Source: Minisyncoccota bacterium
Lineage (GTDB): Bacteria; Patescibacteriota; Minisyncoccia; Phycocordibacterales; UBA918
Length of the DNA stretch: 64,000 bases
NCBI GenBank assembly: GCA_041688155.1
Contig: JBDNIW010000005.1
Span: forward strand, 1 to 64,000
Direction of reading: 5' to 3'
The stretch's first letter is position 1. Every line of letters starts with the position of its first letter. The translations under genes and the position numbers were made by a program. Below the pieces are notes generated by a model that was not told where the DNA came from, made no database searches, and was given only the letters and a program-made list of their open reading frames with translations. Positions 23,330 to 30,228 of this stretch are shown here, piece by piece.

Positions 23330-23664
23330 AGCCTGAGTATAGCAAAATCTGCGTAATTGCTATATATTTCGGTTGCCGGCAGTACTACGGATTGACGGAC
23401 GGGTGACTTATTTTGACCAGCCGAATGAACCCGCAATGCAAGACAACGGTTCGCGGACGACCGAACAGTCACCCGACCCAGTCTTGAGCGAGCGTCCACT
23501 CGTCGACGCCTGAGGTAGGCGACAACCAGTACTTATATATGAACACCAAAGCAGCGCCCCAAAGCGGCCGCTTTTTCTTTGGTTTGATTTTAGTTTAGGG
23601 AGATTATGCGGTCGGGCGATTATAATATTGAGAAAGTGGGTAAAAATGCTACTCTTAACCCATC

Positions 23665-26391
23665 ATGATCAGTCAAAACGAGATTCGTCGTAGAGCTGCT
23701 GCCTTTAGTCACGAGTTTGCCGGTGATGATGATGAGAAAGGCGAAGCCTCAGCATTTTGGGAACAATTCTTCGATGTGTTTGGGGTGTCACGACGCCGAG
23801 TGGCTTCGTTTGAATACCGAGTCAAGAAAGCCGACGGTGCCCAAGGGTTCATCGATGTGTTCTGGCCGGGTGTGCTACTAGCCGAGCATAAAAGCGAAGG
23901 TCGTAATCTCGACAAAGCCTACCAGCAAGCGCTGGGTTATCTTGACGGTTTACAAGCGGGGGAGTTGCCTCGCTATATCGTAGTGTCTGATTTTGCGCGG
24001 ATGCGATTGTATGACCTCGAAGAAAAAGATGAGTTTGAATTTACCCTCAGTGAATTCTCCAAACACATCGACCGGTTTGGGTTCATTTCTGGCTACGACG
24101 TACAGAAATACGAACAAGAGGAACAAGCTAGTATCAAAGCAGCGGAATTGATGGCTGAATTCCACAATGCAATCGCAACTACTGGCTACTCTGGCCACGC
24201 ATTAGAAGTATTCTTGACTCGCGTATTATTCTGCCTCTTTTCTGAGGATACGGGTATATTTGAGCGGCGACAGTTTCAACTATATATAGAACAGCGAACC
24301 AATGAGGACGGTAGCGACCTAGGGATCAAGATTTTGGAGCTGTTCTATGTCCTCAACACGCCAATAGCGGGGCGGCAATCTAACCTCGATGAACAACTCG
24401 CCGCTTTTCCATACATTAACGGCCAAGTATTCACCGAGCGACTCAATCCTATCTCGCTTGATGCCGCTGCCCGCAACACGCTTCTCAAATGCTGTGCGTT
24501 CGATTGGTCACAGATCAGCGCGGCGATATTTGGGTCACTCTTTCAAGGTGTCATGGACAAAGACGAGCGGCGACAGCTGGGCGCCCACTACACCAGCGAG
24601 TTGAACATCATGAAAGTCATCCAGCCGTTGTTCCTCGACGAGCTGTACACCGAGTTCGACACCGCCAAACGCAGCAAGAAACAGCTGGAAACCTTTCATC
24701 TCAAACTGGCCACTCTCAAATTCCTCGATCCAGCCTGTGGCTGTGGTAATTTCCTCGTGACCACGTACCGCGAACTACGTAAACTAGAGCTAGAAGTCCT
24801 CAAGAAAAAGCGTAAGTCTGGCGCGCAGAGTCTGCAGGCGTTCGGGACCGAGGATTTATCATTCATTCACGTTAACCAGTTCTATGGCATCGAAATCGAA
24901 GAATTCCCAGCGCTCGTCGCCCGCACCGCCATGTACCTCGCCGACCACCAAGCGACCCTAGCGATGGAACGTGAATTTGGGCAAGCTATACCGCGAATCC
25001 CGCTAGAAGAACCAGCCACCATCGTGCACGCCAATGCTCTGACTCTCGACTGGGGCGAGGTCATACCGCCCACCGATCTCAACTACATTTTAGGTAACCC
25101 ACCGTTTTTGGGTGCGCGAATTATGAGCAGAGAGCAAAAAGCAGATTTACTAGCCGTGTTTCCACCGAAACTAAAAAACATCGGTAACTTGGACTTTGTC
25201 GCTGCCTGGTATGAGAAAGCTGCTCAATATATAGTAGGAACACAAATCAAAGTCGGTCTAGTATCGACCAACTCGATCACTCAAGGTGAACAAGTCAGTA
25301 TTCTCTGGCAACATCTGCACGAGCAGTACGGCATCGTGCGGCACTTCGCCCATCGAACGTTCAAATGGCACAACGAAGCCAGAGGCAAAGCTGCGGTATA
25401 CTGCGTCATCATCGGGTTTGCGAACTTTGAACCAGTCAAGAAGTATCTGTATTCATACGAAACAGTGCAGAGTGAGCCAGTAGAAATCGAAGTAGGCAAC
25501 ATCAACGCGTATTTGGTAGACGGGCCAGAATTGTTGATAGAAAATCGAACAACAGCTTTATGCGGTGTTCCAAAAGTAAGTTACGGCAGTTTTGCTCTAG
25601 ATGACGGTAATTACACACTTAAGGCTGAAGAGGCTGACGATTTGATTGCAGATAATCCGAAAGTACAAAAATATATCCGACCTTTTATTGGCGGGCGCGA
25701 ACTCATACATAACGAAGCAAGGTTTTGTCTCTGGTTAGCAGAAATTAGCCCGACTGATTTGAAAACTATGCCAAGTGTATTGCGTCGAGTTGAAAACGTA
25801 CGTCAGTGGCGATTGTCCAGCTCACGAGCAAACACAATTGAGATGGCAAAAACGCCAACCCTTTTTGCTGAAGTTAGACAACCTACAACCAAATACATCG
25901 CGTTTCCAACATTATCTTCTGAAAATCGAACTTACATTCCAATTGCGTATCTTGAACCAGAGGTGATAGCCTCAAACCAAGTCTATGTTATCGCTGGTGC
26001 AGACTTATTTCACTTTGGTTTACTGACGTCTGCAATGCATATGACTTGGGTTACATATGTTGGTGGAAAATTAGAATCTCGTTACCGATACTCAAGCAAA
26101 CTTGTCTACAACAACTTTCCGTGGCCAGGCTGCGCTACAGGTGAGTCAGTCAGCGACACCACCAAAACTAAAATCGAAACCTGTGCCCAAGCCGTCCTCG
26201 ACGCTCGCGCAGGGTTCCCCGACAGTTCACTAGCCGACCTTTACGACCCACGCACCATGCCCCCCGCCCTAGCAAAAGCCCATGCCAACCTAGACAAAGC
26301 TGTCGACCAAGCCTACAACTACAAAGATACGGGCAGCGAACCCGACCGAGCAGCGTTTTTGTTTGGGTTGTATGGGGAGATAACTAAATAA
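23665..26391 (+). CDS. Type IIG restriction-modification enzyme (MmeI-like: N-terminal PD-(D/E)xK nuclease, gamma-class N6-adenine methyltransferase and target-recognition region)
   Basis: N-terminal D-x8-EHK (FIDVFWPGVLLAEHK). Methyltransferase motif I LDPACGCGNFLV and motif IV ILGNPPFLG. At 908 aa the size matches MmeI. Confidence 0.7.
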   Translation: MISQNEIRRRAAAFSHEFAGDDDEKGEASAFWEQFFDVFGVSRRRVASFEYRVKKADGAQGFIDVFWPGVLLAEHKSEGRNLDKAYQQALGYLDGLQAGELPRYIVVSDFARMRLYDLEEKDEFEFTLSEFSKHIDRFGFISGYDVQKYEQEEQASIKAAELMAEFHNAIATTGYSGHALEVFLTRVLFCLFSEDTGIFERRQFQLYIEQRTNEDGSDLGIKILELFYVLNTPIAGRQSNLDEQLAAFPYINGQVFTERLNPISLDAAARNTLLKCCAFDWSQISAAIFGSLFQGVMDKDERRQLGAHYTSELNIMKVIQPLFLDELYTEFDTAKRSKKQLETFHLKLATLKFLDPACGCGNFLVTTYRELRKLELEVLKKKRKSGAQSLQAFGTEDLSFIHVNQFYGIEIEEFPALVARTAMYLADHQATLAMEREFGQAIPRIPLEEPATIVHANALTLDWGEVIPPTDLNYILGNPPFLGARIMSREQKADLLAVFPPKLKNIGNLDFVAAWYEKAAQYIVGTQIKVGLVSTNSITQGEQVSILWQHLHEQYGIVRHFAHRTFKWHNEARGKAAVYCVIIGFANFEPVKKYLYSYETVQSEPVEIEVGNINAYLVDGPELLIENRTTALCGVPKVSYGSFALDDGNYTLKAEEADDLIADNPKVQKYIRPFIGGRELIHNEARFCLWLAEISPTDLKTMPSVLRRVENVRQWRLSSSRANTIEMAKTPTLFAEVRQPTTKYIAFPTLSSENRTYIPIAYLEPEVIASNQVYVIAGADLFHFGLLTSAMHMTWVTYVGGKLESRYRYSSKLVYNNFPWPGCATGESVSDTTKTKIETCAQAVLDARAGFPDSSLADLYDPRTMPPALAKAHANLDKAVDQAYNYKDTGSEPDRAAFLFGLYGEITK

Positions 26392-26468
26392 TTATTTCAT
26401 CACGGGAGAATACCAATACTAAGCTGCTGGAAACAACGTTTCCGCTTTATTCTAAATACCTACTTGAG

Positions 26469-27032
26469 ATGTGCCAAGCTGATAGCGGAAAAATATTTCC
26501 AGTGGATCTATTTTTTATAGCCAATATTCAACGCTCGCAGTTTGTAATACAGGGATTTCTGATGCTTATAAAAGAAAAGAATTTCTTTGCTGCTGCACCC
26601 CTCATACGGCTGCATCTTGATAACCTCGTACATATTTATGCGGTGTTCATTCATCCAAACCCACATGAGCTAACCACTAATTTAAATCGTGGTAAAAAAA
26701 GACTTGAAGACTACAGAGATAAAAATGGTAAACGTCTGACTAACAGCAATGTACTAAAAAAATTTTTTACTGATACCGAAAATAAAGAGTTTTTACCGTT
26801 ACGAGATATTTACGATGAAACCTCAAAGTTTATACATTTCAGTGAAAAACACATGCAGTCTATGTTTACTACTGAAACGAAAGATAGTACCAAGACCAAG
26901 ATAAGTATTTTAGCTAAGGAATTTCCCATATCTCAAACAGAAGAAGATCTGGCAATTCAGGCTATGGTAATGATTACCAGAGCTCAAATTAAATACCTAA
27001 TCGGGTGGACTGCAACGAAGAACGGCAAATAA
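26469..27032 (+). CDS. Hypothetical protein in an AT-rich island adjacent to the restriction-modification gene
   Basis: ORF only, no recognisable motif. GC is far below the local average. Confidence 0.3.
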   Translation: MCQADSGKIFPVDLFFIANIQRSQFVIQGFLMLIKEKNFFAAAPLIRLHLDNLVHIYAVFIHPNPHELTTNLNRGKKRLEDYRDKNGKRLTNSNVLKKFFTDTENKEFLPLRDIYDETSKFIHFSEKHMQSMFTTETKDSTKTKISILAKEFPISQTEEDLAIQAMVMITRAQIKYLIGWTATKNGK

Positions 27033-27186
27033 ACTATTTGTACGGAGCTAAATATCCAGGTTGGCCATTTTGTGTCAAAATTGGTGGTAACCCTTGAATC
27101 TGCCTGCAACTGAGTGTACACTTATAAATGACATGACCAGCGCCCTCTGCCACCCGGCAAGCGCTGGTTGTTCGTTATGATAGAGT

Positions 27187-27408
27187 GTGGAGATGGACCG
27201 GATGCCTTACAACAAACCATTTTTGACAGTGTCAGAGCAATTAGAGCAATTGCAGTCTCGTGGGATAAGTGTGACTGATGTTGACCGAGCTAAACGGGAC
27301 TTGCGAGCAATCAACTATTACCGTTTGAGTGGCTACTTGTACCCGCTGCGCAAAAAAGAGCCAGCTCCGCCTAGGCAAGGCCTAGGCGTTTTGAAATCGT
27401 TATATTGA
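27187..27408 (+). pseudogene. Truncated abortive-infection gene (Abi_2/AbiD-family N-terminus only)
   Basis: KPFLTVSEQLEQLQSRGISV...INYYRLSGYLYP matches the Abi_2 N-terminal consensus, but the ORF stops at 73 aa, where a 30-bp hairpin repeat begins. Confidence 0.5.
27363..27392 (+). repeat. 30-bp hairpin direct repeat, copy 1 (CAGCTCCGCCTAGGCAAGGCCTAGGCGTTTT)
   Basis: Perfect 9-bp stem CGCCTAGGC-aag-GCCTAGGCG plus a T-run (terminator-like). The second copy is at 28061-28090. Confidence 0.7.
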
Positions 27409-27440
27409 CATGTAGCTACAAAATGTTAATGTAGCTACAT
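27405..27440 (+). promoter_or_regulatory. hicAB promoter with a tandem palindromic operator
   Basis: TTGACA followed by two copies of the palindrome (A)TGTAGCTACA(T), spaced 8 nt apart and overlapping the -10 region. Confidence 0.45.
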
Positions 27441-27479
27441 GTCGCGCTGCACTTACATTTCCTAACTTTCCTCTGTAAC

Positions 27480-27719
27480 ATGACACAACGCGATAAACTA
27501 TTTAATAATTTTTTAAAGAATCCTGAAAGCGTTAGCTACAAGGAAATGAATAAAATTCTAAAATGGTACGAGTTTGAAAAAATAGAAGCCAAAGGTAGCC
27601 ATGTAAAATTTAAACATCCACTTTTTCGAAGAGATCTTATTGTGGCTGTACACAATAATGAATGTAAAGGCTACATGAAAAAAGAGGCGTTGCGCAGAAT
27701 ACAGATAATTTTAGGATAG
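27480..27719 (+). CDS. hicA: HicA-family toxin (mRNA interferase)
   Basis: KGSHVKFKHP...LIVAVHNNECKGYMKKEALRRIQ matches the HicA GSH..FKHP motif. Confidence 0.7.
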   Translation: MTQRDKLFNNFLKNPESVSYKEMNKILKWYEFEKIEAKGSHVKFKHPLFRRDLIVAVHNNECKGYMKKEALRRIQIILG

Positions 27720-27731
27720 TAGAGTTAATAT

Positions 27732-28049
27732 ATGAATATGAAAACAACAAATGGAAGTATCCTATCCGGAAACAAAAAGTATCAATACATCATGACAGAA
27801 ACACCAGGAGGAATGGTGTACGTTGACTGTGAGGCAGCCAGTGTTGGACAGGAATTCGAGGCTGAGGATATCGGCGCACTTATTTTAGACTTACCAAATC
27901 TGATTGAAGCTGAACTGTCATATAAAGAAATACAATCTGGTACGATTCGTTTTCGGACTACAGTAGAAGAGCGTAAAAAAATAGAAGCGAATGCAAAAGC
28001 CAGTGGTAAAAGTATTTCAAAATTCGTCCGCGATTTGGCGGTAGGGTAA
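27732..28049 (+). CDS. hicB: HicB-family antitoxin with a C-terminal RHH DNA-binding domain
   Basis: HicB-like N-terminal domain plus KASGKSISKFVRDLAV (ribbon-helix-helix), immediately downstream of hicA. Confidence 0.6.
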   Translation: MNMKTTNGSILSGNKKYQYIMTETPGGMVYVDCEAASVGQEFEAEDIGALILDLPNLIEAELSYKEIQSGTIRFRTTVEERKKIEANAKASGKSISKFVRDLAVG

Positions 28050-28060
28050 ACTTCTAGCTC

Positions 28061-28090
28061 CGCCTAGGCAAGACCTAGGCGCTTTGTCGG
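28061..28090 (+). repeat. 30-bp hairpin direct repeat, copy 2
   Basis: AGCTCCGCCTAGGCAAGACCTAGGCGCTTT; 28 of 30 positions identical to copy 1. Confidence 0.7.
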
Positions 28091-28192
28091 CGCTAAGGGG
28101 TTGACAGGTGACTAAAACAGTGCGAATCATAATTACATTATGAAACAAGCAATCAAGGGGTTGGGGAGTATGGGGTTGGGTTTGTAGTTGGG

Positions 28193-28492
28193 ATGCTTTT
28201 GGCTGTGCTGGTACTGCCAGCGGCTGCGAGTATTCCTGATGTGTACACCAACGATAATATCTGGACGAGCACTCACGATGCACCAGTGACTATTAACCTT
28301 GATGAGGCAAGGAATTTCTATGGCACTACTGCCACTGGCAAGCTGTTTAGTCAGACTCGGATTGAAAACAGCCTGAATGTCCGCCTGCAGAAATTTGCGA
28401 TTGATGAGGCGTTCTTTTATATTTCTGACCGCGGAATCATTAATGCTGAATCAGACGTTGTGGCGTTGTCGATTTATTTGACGTTGGGATAG
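28193..28492 (+). CDS. Small secreted hypothetical protein
   Basis: Signal-peptide-like MLLAVLVLPAAASIP. Confidence 0.3.
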   Translation: MLLAVLVLPAAASIPDVYTNDNIWTSTHDAPVTINLDEARNFYGTTATGKLFSQTRIENSLNVRLQKFAIDEAFFYISDRGIINAESDVVALSIYLTLG

Positions 28493-28726
28493 GGACACAA
28501 CCAGTGGCAACCGCAACGTCGGCGATTAGTAATAGTAATGGGGTGATTTGATTATATACCGACTTAGGGACAGATCACATTGCATCAAATATAACTCAGT
28601 TTGGTGTTTTGGTTCCTCCTGCACTAATAAAAACCCACAGGTCGGTAAATAATACACGACAATCAGAAAGGCGATGTTCTGGCGCCGCTTTTTAATTTGC
28701 TATACTGTGGCTACTTAGACATATAT

Positions 28727-29149
28727 ATGAAGCAATTTTTTATCTCCTTCCACCACTGGGTCGAAACCATCCCAGACAAACTGTACCCTTTTCAACAAGA
28801 AATCGAAGGACATTGGGTACGGGGTCAACGCGCGTACGAGCAAGCACTCCATGATGGGATCAAAATCCACGGCCCTGGACAGACCAGCTACCGACTGATG
28901 ATCTATCGGGGAACGTGGCACTTGTTTGGATCGATTGTGTTGATGACGAGTCTGACTATCGTTGCGCATCAGTTGCTGGGTAGTGAAGCTGCCCTCTATG
29001 TATTGCTCGCCGCCGCAATCGCAGCCCTGTGCCTCCAGGAATTCATCCTACACCCCAAACGTTACGGTCAGACCACCCGCAAGGGCGTCATCGACATCGT
29101 CACCTGGGTCGCCCCGATGGCGGTGTATATGGCGTTTTTAGTGTCGTAG
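28727..29149 (+). CDS. Hypothetical membrane protein
   Basis: Two to three TM segments. The likely start is MKQFF. Confidence 0.35.
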   Translation: MKQFFISFHHWVETIPDKLYPFQQEIEGHWVRGQRAYEQALHDGIKIHGPGQTSYRLMIYRGTWHLFGSIVLMTSLTIVAHQLLGSEAALYVLLAAAIAALCLQEFILHPKRYGQTTRKGVIDIVTWVAPMAVYMAFLVS

Positions 29150-29200
29150 TCACCTGGGAGTCGGGTTGCCTAGTGTATAAACATTGTATATACTATATCA

Positions 29201-29443
29201 ATGGAAACCAAAATTCTGAAATGGGGCAACAGCCTCGGGGTACGGCTCCCAAGTGATATCGCCAAGCGGCAATCACTGCGAGCCGGGAGTGTGGTTGTAG
29301 TCGAAGAAACTGACGGCGTAATCACTATCAAGGTAGCCAAACAAAAGCCACAAACACTGGCTGAATTGGTGGCGCAAATGCGCGAACAAAACCAACCAGA
29401 CTTAATCGACGGGGGTGAGCCGCGGGGCGCTGAGATATGGTAA
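29201..29443 (+). CDS. mazE: MazE/PemI (AbrB/SpoVT-fold) antitoxin
   Basis: KWGNSLGVRLP motif. Confidence 0.7.
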   Translation: METKILKWGNSLGVRLPSDIAKRQSLRAGSVVVVEETDGVITIKVAKQKPQTLAELVAQMREQNQPDLIDGGEPRGAEIW

Positions 29444-29763
29444 CGCCCAATCGAGGTGACCTGATCTGGATTGACTTTGACCCAGCTCGCGGGCGCGAAC
29501 AAAAACACCATCGACCGGCGTTGGTGATTTCTCCATTGTCATATAACAAATACAGCAAATTGATTCTGGTGTGTCCAATCACCTCTAATCTGCGCCCCTA
29601 CGCGTTTGGCGTGCCGGTTGATCACAAACAAGTTGCCGGTATGGTACTGGTAGATCAGATCAAAGCCTTTGACTGGCTTGACCGTGGTGCCAAACGAATT
29701 GGTACGTGTGATCAGGCCACCCTAACGACCGTACTGCAGAAATTACGAGTTTTGGTAGAATAA
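29437..29763 (+). CDS. mazF: MazF/ChpB-family toxin endoribonuclease
   Basis: GDLIWIDFDPARGREQKHHRPALVIS. Overlaps mazE by 7 nt. Confidence 0.75.
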   Translation: MVTPNRGDLIWIDFDPARGREQKHHRPALVISPLSYNKYSKLILVCPITSNLRPYAFGVPVDHKQVAGMVLVDQIKAFDWLDRGAKRIGTCDQATLTTVLQKLRVLVE

Positions 29764-29767
29764 AGTT

Positions 29768-30109
29768 ATGAAAACGCTCAAATTTAGATCTGACTTGTGT
29801 GAACAGATTATTGCTGGAACAAAAACAACCACCTGGCGCCTGTTAGATGACAAAGATTTGCAAGAGGGAGATAGCCTAGAGTTTATGAACTGGGAAACAA
29901 GGGAAGTGTTTGGGGCTGGCAGTATCACGGCCCTGAGTATCAAAACCCTTGGCAGTCTAGAAGAATCAGACTGGGAAGGACACGAACAATTTGCGTCAGA
30001 GTGGGAAATGTACGCGACGTATCGCACATACTATGGTGATGCAGTGGGTCCAGAGACCGAGGTAAAGATTATTGATTTTAGTTTCAATCCTGACGTGGCT
30101 AATAAATAG
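29768..30109 (+). CDS. ASCH-domain protein
   Basis: ASCH signature IIAGTKTTTWR near the N-terminus. Confidence 0.55.
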   Translation: MKTLKFRSDLCEQIIAGTKTTTWRLLDDKDLQEGDSLEFMNWETREVFGAGSITALSIKTLGSLEESDWEGHEQFASEWEMYATYRTYYGDAVGPETEVKIIDFSFNPDVANK

Positions 30110-30228
30110 TAGCTTGTATTTTCTCCTGCACGTGCTATAAATTGAGTAGCGAAACACAACTCCTTTGAAGTACGGACAAAGTGAAAAAGAAGTGACGTTT
30201 TGTATTAAAACAAATAAACAAACACAAG

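Follow-up and report, generated by a model that had tools for sequence, protein, structure and literature searches.

That a gene may be suspected of a role in defence when it is found embedded among defence genes is an established principle (Payne et al., bioRxiv 10.1101/2024.01.29.577857), and genes nested in defence operons are indeed a productive source of new anti-phage systems. In the case of restriction-modification (RM) systems, at least 16 clades of HEPN proteins are RM-linked, in addition to PrrC, which resides in the EcoprrI type I operon (Anantharaman et al. 2013, PMC3710099). Anticodon nucleases of the PrrC type are kept inactive through binding to the RM enzyme until a phage anti-restriction factor sets them free. 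Accessory genes embedded in RM systems are, in other words, a known kind; the family described here is itself large and unannotated. The member that we analysed, gene X, lies directly behind the gene for an MmeI-family type IIG restriction-methylation enzyme in a stretch of 64,000 nucleotides (hereafter the window) of contig JBDNIW010000005.1, from a Minisyncoccota bacterium. The host is a reduced-genome bacterium of the Candidate Phyla Radiation (CPR), a group with a poorly known defence repertoire. It is Paceibacteria/Kaiserbacteria-like, judging by those relatives of the nearby ClpC-like gene that bear a name.

According to our analysis, X would be a mobile accessory gene of a DUF5677-related family of proteins of approximately 215 amino acids (aa), inserted at the MmeI stop codon and serving as a second-line or addiction module beside restriction, a reading to which we assign a probability of roughly 0.45. 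MmeI and X would share a transcript and be coupled in translation, the start of X being probably a weak ATT that overlaps the MmeI stop, and the product of X would act as a second line (of the abortive-infection or addiction type) alongside restriction, as for HEPN and other RM-embedded genes. We favour this reading because relatives are embedded in RM systems of types I, II, IIG and III, because the gene is AT-rich, and because the MmeI stop codon behaves as a swap slot. As regards function, X appears to be a good candidate defence gene.

Gene X and its relatives in restriction-modification operons

Approximately 36 independent loci of the X family were examined, and in 13 of them the relative lies inside an RM operon of type I, II, IIG or III; among the closer relatives, the proportion is 11 of 15. 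The gene follows an MmeI-type IIG enzyme in the window, L019 and L037, and an Eco57I/TaqI_C-type IIG enzyme in L004 and L030. In type I systems it is found in the order hsdM-X-hsdS-hsdR (L008-L010) or within the operon alongside other embedded genes (L012, L124), in a type II system behind an EcoRI-type methylase (L013), and in type III systems between Mod and Res (L014-L016, L020). In two unclassified cases (L007, L118), it follows a 797-aa protein that carries methylase motifs I and IV and has no Pfam match. With an assumed background of 1-5% RM methylase genes, finding 13 of 36 loci in RM operons has a probability of 2e-17 to 1e-8. Two further loci lie near restriction-like genes, of the HARE-HTH/PD-(D/E)XK (L022) and GmrSD-like (L128) kinds.

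In 10 of 12 measured loci X is directly 3' of the methylase-bearing gene and in the same orientation, with gaps of -14 to +36 bp; at L012 and L124 other embedded genes separate the two. Furthermore, its guanine-plus-cytosine (GC) content is 4-15 points under that of the adjacent methylase gene in 11 of the 12 embedded loci, a deficit that fits independent mobility. No conserved partner gene was seen beside X, as the neighbouring genes (of 320, 254, 234 and 157 aa, among others) share no similarity. The search for relatives in 50,697 phage genomes (INPHARED) and in IMG/VR found none, and a phage origin of X was rejected on these grounds. An earlier note on this DNA had proposed X as a candidate defence gene on account of its position between the RM gene and the remnant of an Abi gene. 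The recurrence of homologues beside RM genes bears out the first half of this argument; it is the RM methyltransferase, and not the Abi remnant, to which the family is linked.

The 797-aa proteins (L007:1996-4389 and L118:2-841), which stand 5' of the two closest X homologues, have the motifs DMCCGVGNL and LINPPYAE, no sequence match in Pfam or the PDB, and may represent an undescribed RM or methylase family. Separately, the Gracilibacteria-type contigs L004 and L021 can be read correctly only with genetic code 25, in which TGA is a sense codon: in L004, 20 TGA codons stand in frame within one of the neighbour genes, and the database protein P0010 has tryptophan at these positions.

Three sister strains (L041, L047, L048) carry an orthologous MmeI gene at the same place, approximately 77-79% identical in nucleotides over the full gene length. 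The homology of the window, L041 and L047 stops at the MmeI stop codon, and what follows differs each time: X in the window; genes of 123 and 193 aa in L041; a 183-aa gene and then a 157-aa membrane protein in L047; and, in L048, where MmeI is frameshifted, a 230-aa protein with the sequence RNSILHG, followed by a DUF4160 gene. The cargo genes are AT-rich, with a GC of 0.29-0.34 in those measured, and adjoin or overlap the stop codon of MmeI. Since orthologous MmeI genes carry different AT-rich genes at the same position, the 3' end of MmeI is a swap slot. Locally, this series is the strongest evidence that the position serves as a docking site for exchangeable accessory modules. One orthologous MmeI gene with four different cargo genes at its stop codon amounts to a natural experiment. 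The L047 membrane protein (L047:1125-1598, - strand) has a match to the model of PycTM, a Pycsar effector (2.6e-6), although no cyclase lies nearby on its contig, and the 230-aa L048 protein (L048:644-1336, - strand), which overlaps the end of the frameshifted MmeI, has no match in Pfam or PADLOC; its RNxxxH is typical of HEPN RNases.

Such a position might also be occupied by a helper of the restriction system (a regulator, an assembly factor or a modulator of the methyltransferase that would, for example, set the balance between methylation and cutting) and not by an independent defence module. X does in fact follow the methyltransferase-bearing gene and not the nuclease gene, its place being between the mod and res genes or the hsdM and hsdS genes, and overlapping or abutting frames point to matched expression. 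However, the partner methylases are of differing classes and RM types, so that a single shared physical partner is unlikely, the orthologous MmeI works with differing slot genes or possibly with none, and over half of the family members sampled lack any RM neighbour; we therefore consider a helper role quite unlikely. A broader proposal, also improbable in our judgement, is that the family is a general guard of RM, namely a latent effector made with the methyltransferase of type I, II, IIG and III systems and firing when RM is disabled. The trigger could be, for example, phage anti-restriction proteins or loss of S-adenosylmethionine, and the 3' end of the RM methylase gene would be a dedicated docking slot for exchanged effectors.

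The X family and the state of the window copy

A word-indexed search with X found only 11 homologues, and an exhaustive profile search found 1,478 protein clusters (defined at 50% identity) at E<=1e-3, of which 1,094 at E<=1e-10. All members that bear any name are called hypothetical, and the family consensus has no match in Pfam or PADLOC. The earlier note had described X as motif-less, which is correct insofar as no Rx4-6H motif of the HEPN type is conserved across 112 homologues. In the same set, however, R47, Y115 and H123 are invariant, and D13, R22, D51, D92, S125 and H128 are at least 96% conserved, the histidines being arranged as H123-x-S125-x-x-H128. The sequence RLHLDNLVH, singled out in that note, is present; of its residues only R47 and D51 are conserved, and H55 is an arginine in 81% of members. 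Because the polar set R47, D51, Y115, H123, S125 and H128 is conserved, X is possibly an enzyme, and our most likely guess for its activity would be a metal-independent nuclease. In five relatives (P0035, P0040, P0042, P0142, P0143) the X domain is fused to other segments, namely DUF7829 (219 bits), an acetyltransferase of the GNAT family and two weakly matching stretches, one RES-like and the other SnoaL-like.

Structure comparison, for which the earlier note had recommended HHpred or AlphaFold followed by Foldseek, was of little help. The Foldseek matches of highest template modelling (TM) score to the AlphaFold model include HEPN proteins and AbiV, with TM scores of 0.25-0.49 and E>3, which are not significant. 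The X profile had only a chance-level match, to ILF3, in the PDB, and hhalign comparisons with the AbiD of L038, the RNxxxH protein of L048 and a 258-aa neighbour in L025 gave probabilities under 5%. A HEPN identity for X is thus kept only as a guess.

Several results weigh against the reading of X as a second-line module. The protein of 187 aa predicted from the open reading frame (ORF) at 26469-27032 has no match in Pfam, PADLOC, NCBIfam or PHROGs, and Foldseek of the model against the PDB and BFVD found no significant neighbour (best E 1.1-2.5). A DUF5677 gene tested in Enterococcus faecalis was outside the five ORFs reported as protective (PMC12632615). Approximately 60% of the sampled loci have no RM linkage. 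These are solitary, mostly from a distant Bacteroidota/Sphingobacteriales clade or plasmid copies, and a few (L023, L029, L126) stand among ordinary genes, which is what the earlier note had expected to see if its proposal were wrong; RM co-occurrence is found elsewhere. Some are alone on plasmids; plasmid copies adjoin recombinase, insertion sequence (IS) or integrase genes.

The plasmid copies, next to IS110, serine recombinase and integrase genes, would also suit a selfish hitchhiker, namely an AT-rich cassette that is mobile (either a toxin-like gene for addiction or other cargo of a mobile element) and of no benefit against phages, and that would land in RM operons because such sites are tolerated, expressed and themselves mobile. 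The GC deficit described above, the reported enrichment of DUF5677 near serine recombinases (PMC12632615) and the presence of the addiction modules hicAB and mazEF in the same island point in this direction as well. On the other hand, random landing would be less orderly than this precise placement, repeated at a methylase stop in RM systems of four types; X has no mobility gene attached, and the same slot carries a relative of a Pycsar-type membrane effector in L047, and for these reasons we consider a purely selfish cassette unlikely.

The two remaining points against a second-line role lie in the window copy itself. The ATG at 26469, taken as the start in the earlier note, is probably not the true one, as from 26388 onwards the frame is free of stops and shows homology to relatives. 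The 27 in-frame codons 5' of this ATG read IIISSRENTNTKLLETTFPLYSKYLLE, a sequence that can be aligned to the N-terminal ends of P0002 and P0003, the closest two homologues (MSFESDLRLLETTFDLYSKYLVEM and MRSNDEYLTLLETTFELYSQEISKM); both begin with an ATG immediately past their upstream gene. This extension encodes a conserved helix, and with it the AlphaFold model (214 aa) improves from 83.0 to 86.5 in predicted local distance difference test (pLDDT) and from 0.77 to 0.84 in predicted TM score (pTM), the extension itself having a pLDDT of 90-96. Within the 27 codons, however, there is no ATG, GTG or TTG, leaving the conserved N-terminal helix without a canonical start. Furthermore, the window X is the only one of the 112 members with an asparagine at D92, a position conserved at 96%, and this copy may therefore be impaired.

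Whatever the family does, then, the window copy could be a decaying, non-functional remnant like the adjacent AbiD stump. The missing start codon for a helix that the closest homologues begin from an ATG, the unique D-to-N change together with changes at two other well-conserved sites, and the loss of 822 bp from the neighbouring AbiD gene would all agree with this. Nevertheless, the frame is open for 214 codons at 35.5% GC, the chance of which is approximately 1e-7 by our own estimate, X is identical on all 13 contigs bearing the gene, and the number of differing positions among the highly conserved columns, 2 of 16, is equalled or exceeded by 21 of the 112 members. The last base of the MmeI stop TAA (26389-26391) is also the first base of an in-frame ATT (TAATT), where the sister strain L047 has TAATG at the equivalent junction, and a GGGGAG sequence lies 12-17 nt 5' of the ATT. 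The N-terminus of X might, on this evidence, arise through weak ATT initiation coupled to MmeI termination, or else belong to a gene damaged at its 5' end; we regard decay as doubtful, although it is the likeliest of the alternatives. A programmed frameshift joining MmeI to X was rejected, as the junction lacks a slippery heptamer and a TAA stands in the X frame at 26385-26387.

Between the ATT and the ATG at 26469 a terminator-like scan marked a small hairpin with a 7-bp stem (Table 1). The scan gave 13 such matches where 6.3 were expected by chance; this hairpin could be one of chance or could affect read-through from MmeI.

The surrounding hotspot and its genes

All genes named in the earlier note, from the MmeI enzyme to an ASCH-domain protein, were found in place by ORF listing and four profile libraries; two ORFs inside the interval, now orf99 and orf150, had been omitted from its list. 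The GC trough that it reported is also real, with 0.355 for X and 0.317 for hicA in a window of 0.486. An Rfam scan of the window returned only four tRNAs. Coordinates are collected in Table 1.

Table 1. Features of the island and of its insertion points in the window; L038 and L043 are related loci described in the text.
Feature	Position	Strand	Evidence or remark
MmeI + X cassette	23660..27081	.	blastn of window vs L038: homology ends 23659, restarts 27082
MmeI-family type IIG restriction-methylation enzyme, full length, 908 aa	23665..26391	+	
Gene X, DUF5677-related all-alpha protein	26388..27032	+	Frame open from 26388; ATG of the earlier note at 26469
Small hairpin with T-rich tail, within N-terminal extension of X	26428..26444	+	Terminator-like scan
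Terminator-like hairpin CCGGCAAGCGCTGG + TTGTTCGTT, 3' of X	27154..27167	+	In backbone DNA common to L038
AbiD (Abi_2) remnant, 73 aa	27187..27408	+	First ~58 codons, then out-of-register sequence
hicA-hicB-orf99 cassette	27394..28531	.	Absent in L038; in L043 without MmeI
Putative hicAB promoter + operator	27405..27439	+	Read from sequence; function inferred
HicA toxin, 79 aa	27480..27719	+	PF07927 36.3 bits, cut-off 27
HicB-type antitoxin, C-terminal ribbon-helix-helix (RHH), 105 aa	27732..28049	+	NikA-like RHH 36.4 bits
orf99, 99 aa	28193..28492	+	tblastn map of relatives
orf150, 150 aa, membrane-like backbone gene	28697..29149	+	Conserved in relatives
MazE antitoxin	29201..29443	+	PF04014 41.1 bits
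MazF toxin	29437..29763	+	PF02452 89.8 bits
ASCH-domain protein, backbone gene	29768..30109	+	PF04266 22.1 bits, cut-off 21.2: marginal

When metagenomes were scanned with xth, the neighbouring gene for exonuclease III, 80 related loci were identified, in which the order CCA-adding enzyme, xth, variable interval, cold-shock gene, membrane protein, ClpC-like gene is kept. From xth to the cold-shock gene the gap measures anything from approximately 200 bp (in L089, L096, L099, L101, L103, L104 and L112) to approximately 9 kb, with contents that differ by strain (window 23330-30228; loci L038-L117). Because the flanking gene order is kept while the size of the gap varies to this extent, the interval is a true cassette hotspot in this CPR lineage. 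In the closest strain, L038, whose xth is 97% identical, MmeI, X, hicAB and orf99 are all missing, and the place of MmeI and X is taken by genes for RadC, an HNH nuclease and a fragment of the HpaII endonuclease. This L038 segment (L038:5864-8262) has the appearance of a type II system in decay: alongside the C-terminal HpaII fragment and the HNH nuclease (307 bits with PADLOC HNH), it contains a RadC/JAB gene, the end of which resembles a cytosine methylase motif I.

L038 and the window have in common the block of orf150, mazEF, ASCH and cold-shock gene. Since orf150 and the ASCH gene are retained in relatives where the other genes are missing (L044, L050), they are backbone genes and not cargo of the island. 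The ASCH gene, found in L038 (94%) and also in the mazEF-less L050 (62%), is consequently part of the locus and not of the defence island in which the earlier note had placed it, even though the gene and its marginal domain match are confirmed. The protein also matches DUF3850 at 23.8 bits, and the ASCH match says nothing on any defence role.

The MmeI gene carries all five MmeI Pfam domains and scores 1168 bits with the PADLOC model REase_MTase_IIG and 974 bits with the sequence of the crystal structure 5hr4, aligned over residues 2-907. The nuclease motif D...ExK and the methylase motifs I (DPACGCGNFL) and IV (NPPF) are retained, and with the five-domain architecture, D..ExK and gamma-class N6A methylase motifs the protein has all the hallmarks of the MmeI family. 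Its target-recognition domain (window 25530-26102) has nucleotide homology to L047 and none to L041 or L048, while the remainder of the gene shows the identity to these orthologues given above; this difference looks like specificity-domain swapping.

The truncated Abi gene of the earlier note is indeed truncated. Residues 8-55 of the stump match positions 3-50 of the 277 of the PADLOC AbiD model (5.9e-13), so that a complete Abi_2 domain is not found in this gene, and L038 has the whole AbiD of 317 aa (Abi_2 181 bits, PADLOC AbiD 233 bits). Window 27082-27360 is collinear with L038 5616-5338 and window 27363-27393 with L038 4515-4485, and the stump is the product of a clean internal deletion of 822 bp. 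Truncation by insertion of hicAB was rejected, as 31 bp known from L038, where they come right after the AbiD stop, still precede the hicAB cassette.

In both hicAB and mazEF the toxin and antitoxin domains stand in adjacent pairs, above Pfam cut-offs (RHH for the HicB-type antitoxin, whose HicB domain score of 16.9 bits is below cut-off). With NCBIfam, MazE matches at 40.2 bits (3.2e-10), under the model cut-off of 113, and MazF at 114.5 bits, slightly under the equivalog cut-off of 120. A TTGACA at 27405, in which the stop codon of the AbiD stump falls, is followed by two perfect 10-bp palindromes TGTAGCTACA at 27411-27420 and 27430-27439, that is 40-75 bp 5' of hicA, and these elements are probably the hicAB promoter and the operator of the RHH antitoxin. 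The product of orf99 has no family match in the profile libraries scanned; its gene accompanies hicAB in L043, and no fewer than seven further relatives (48-72% identity) have it alone in the hotspot.

Comparison with known systems

Approximately 1,500 clusters, none of them annotated, make up the X family, whose location directly behind the methyltransferase gene in RM systems of four types is unusually specific. If the family is active, the concept of a second line behind restriction would be extended from type I to the single-polypeptide IIG and to type III systems, and a function would be at hand for part of DUF5677. This last family (PF18928) is, like that of X, of unassigned function, and is the closest described one at the sequence level: P0006 is above its gathering score (28.2 vs 27.1), and 25 of the 112 relatives match it at E<=0.01 over their N-terminal two thirds, with DUF6988 matching more weakly. 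However, the window protein has no match to it even at E<=0.1, nor has the family consensus at E<=1, and the X family is a divergent branch not covered by Pfam.

With the PDC families (Payne et al.) X shares the principle by which a defence role is proposed. Two relatives have weak PADLOC-DB 2.0 matches to such families (P0006 to PDC-S32 at 1e-3 and P0142 to PDC-M29B at 4.7e-6), whereas X itself and most relatives match no PDC model, and neither X nor the family consensus matches anything in PADLOC-DB 2.0. DUF5677 was not found in the part of the supplements of that work available to us (bioRxiv 10.1101/2024.01.29.577857).

AbiV, a lactococcal HEPN RNase (PDB 9bj5, 9bj7), resembles X in being an all-alpha protein of approximately 200 aa and is among the better Foldseek scores, and its N-terminal segment is needed for activity. 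Its likeness to X is nevertheless not significant (E 3.6-7, probability <=0.14, TM 0.25-0.41), and there is no PADLOC AbiV match. The HEPN clades linked to RM differ from X in that the latter has no Rx4-6H and no significant HEPN fold match, and its embedding spans types I, II, IIG and III and not a single type. In terms of arrangement, these clades and PrrC follow the same logic as X, with a small gene foreign to the RM system sitting within the RM operon and in its orientation; members of the X family show embedding of this kind at 13 of approximately 36 loci. The products of X and PrrC are built differently, as PrrC joins an N-terminal ABC ATPase to a C-terminal HEPN nuclease, whereas X is a single all-alpha domain of approximately 215 aa with no ATPase match.

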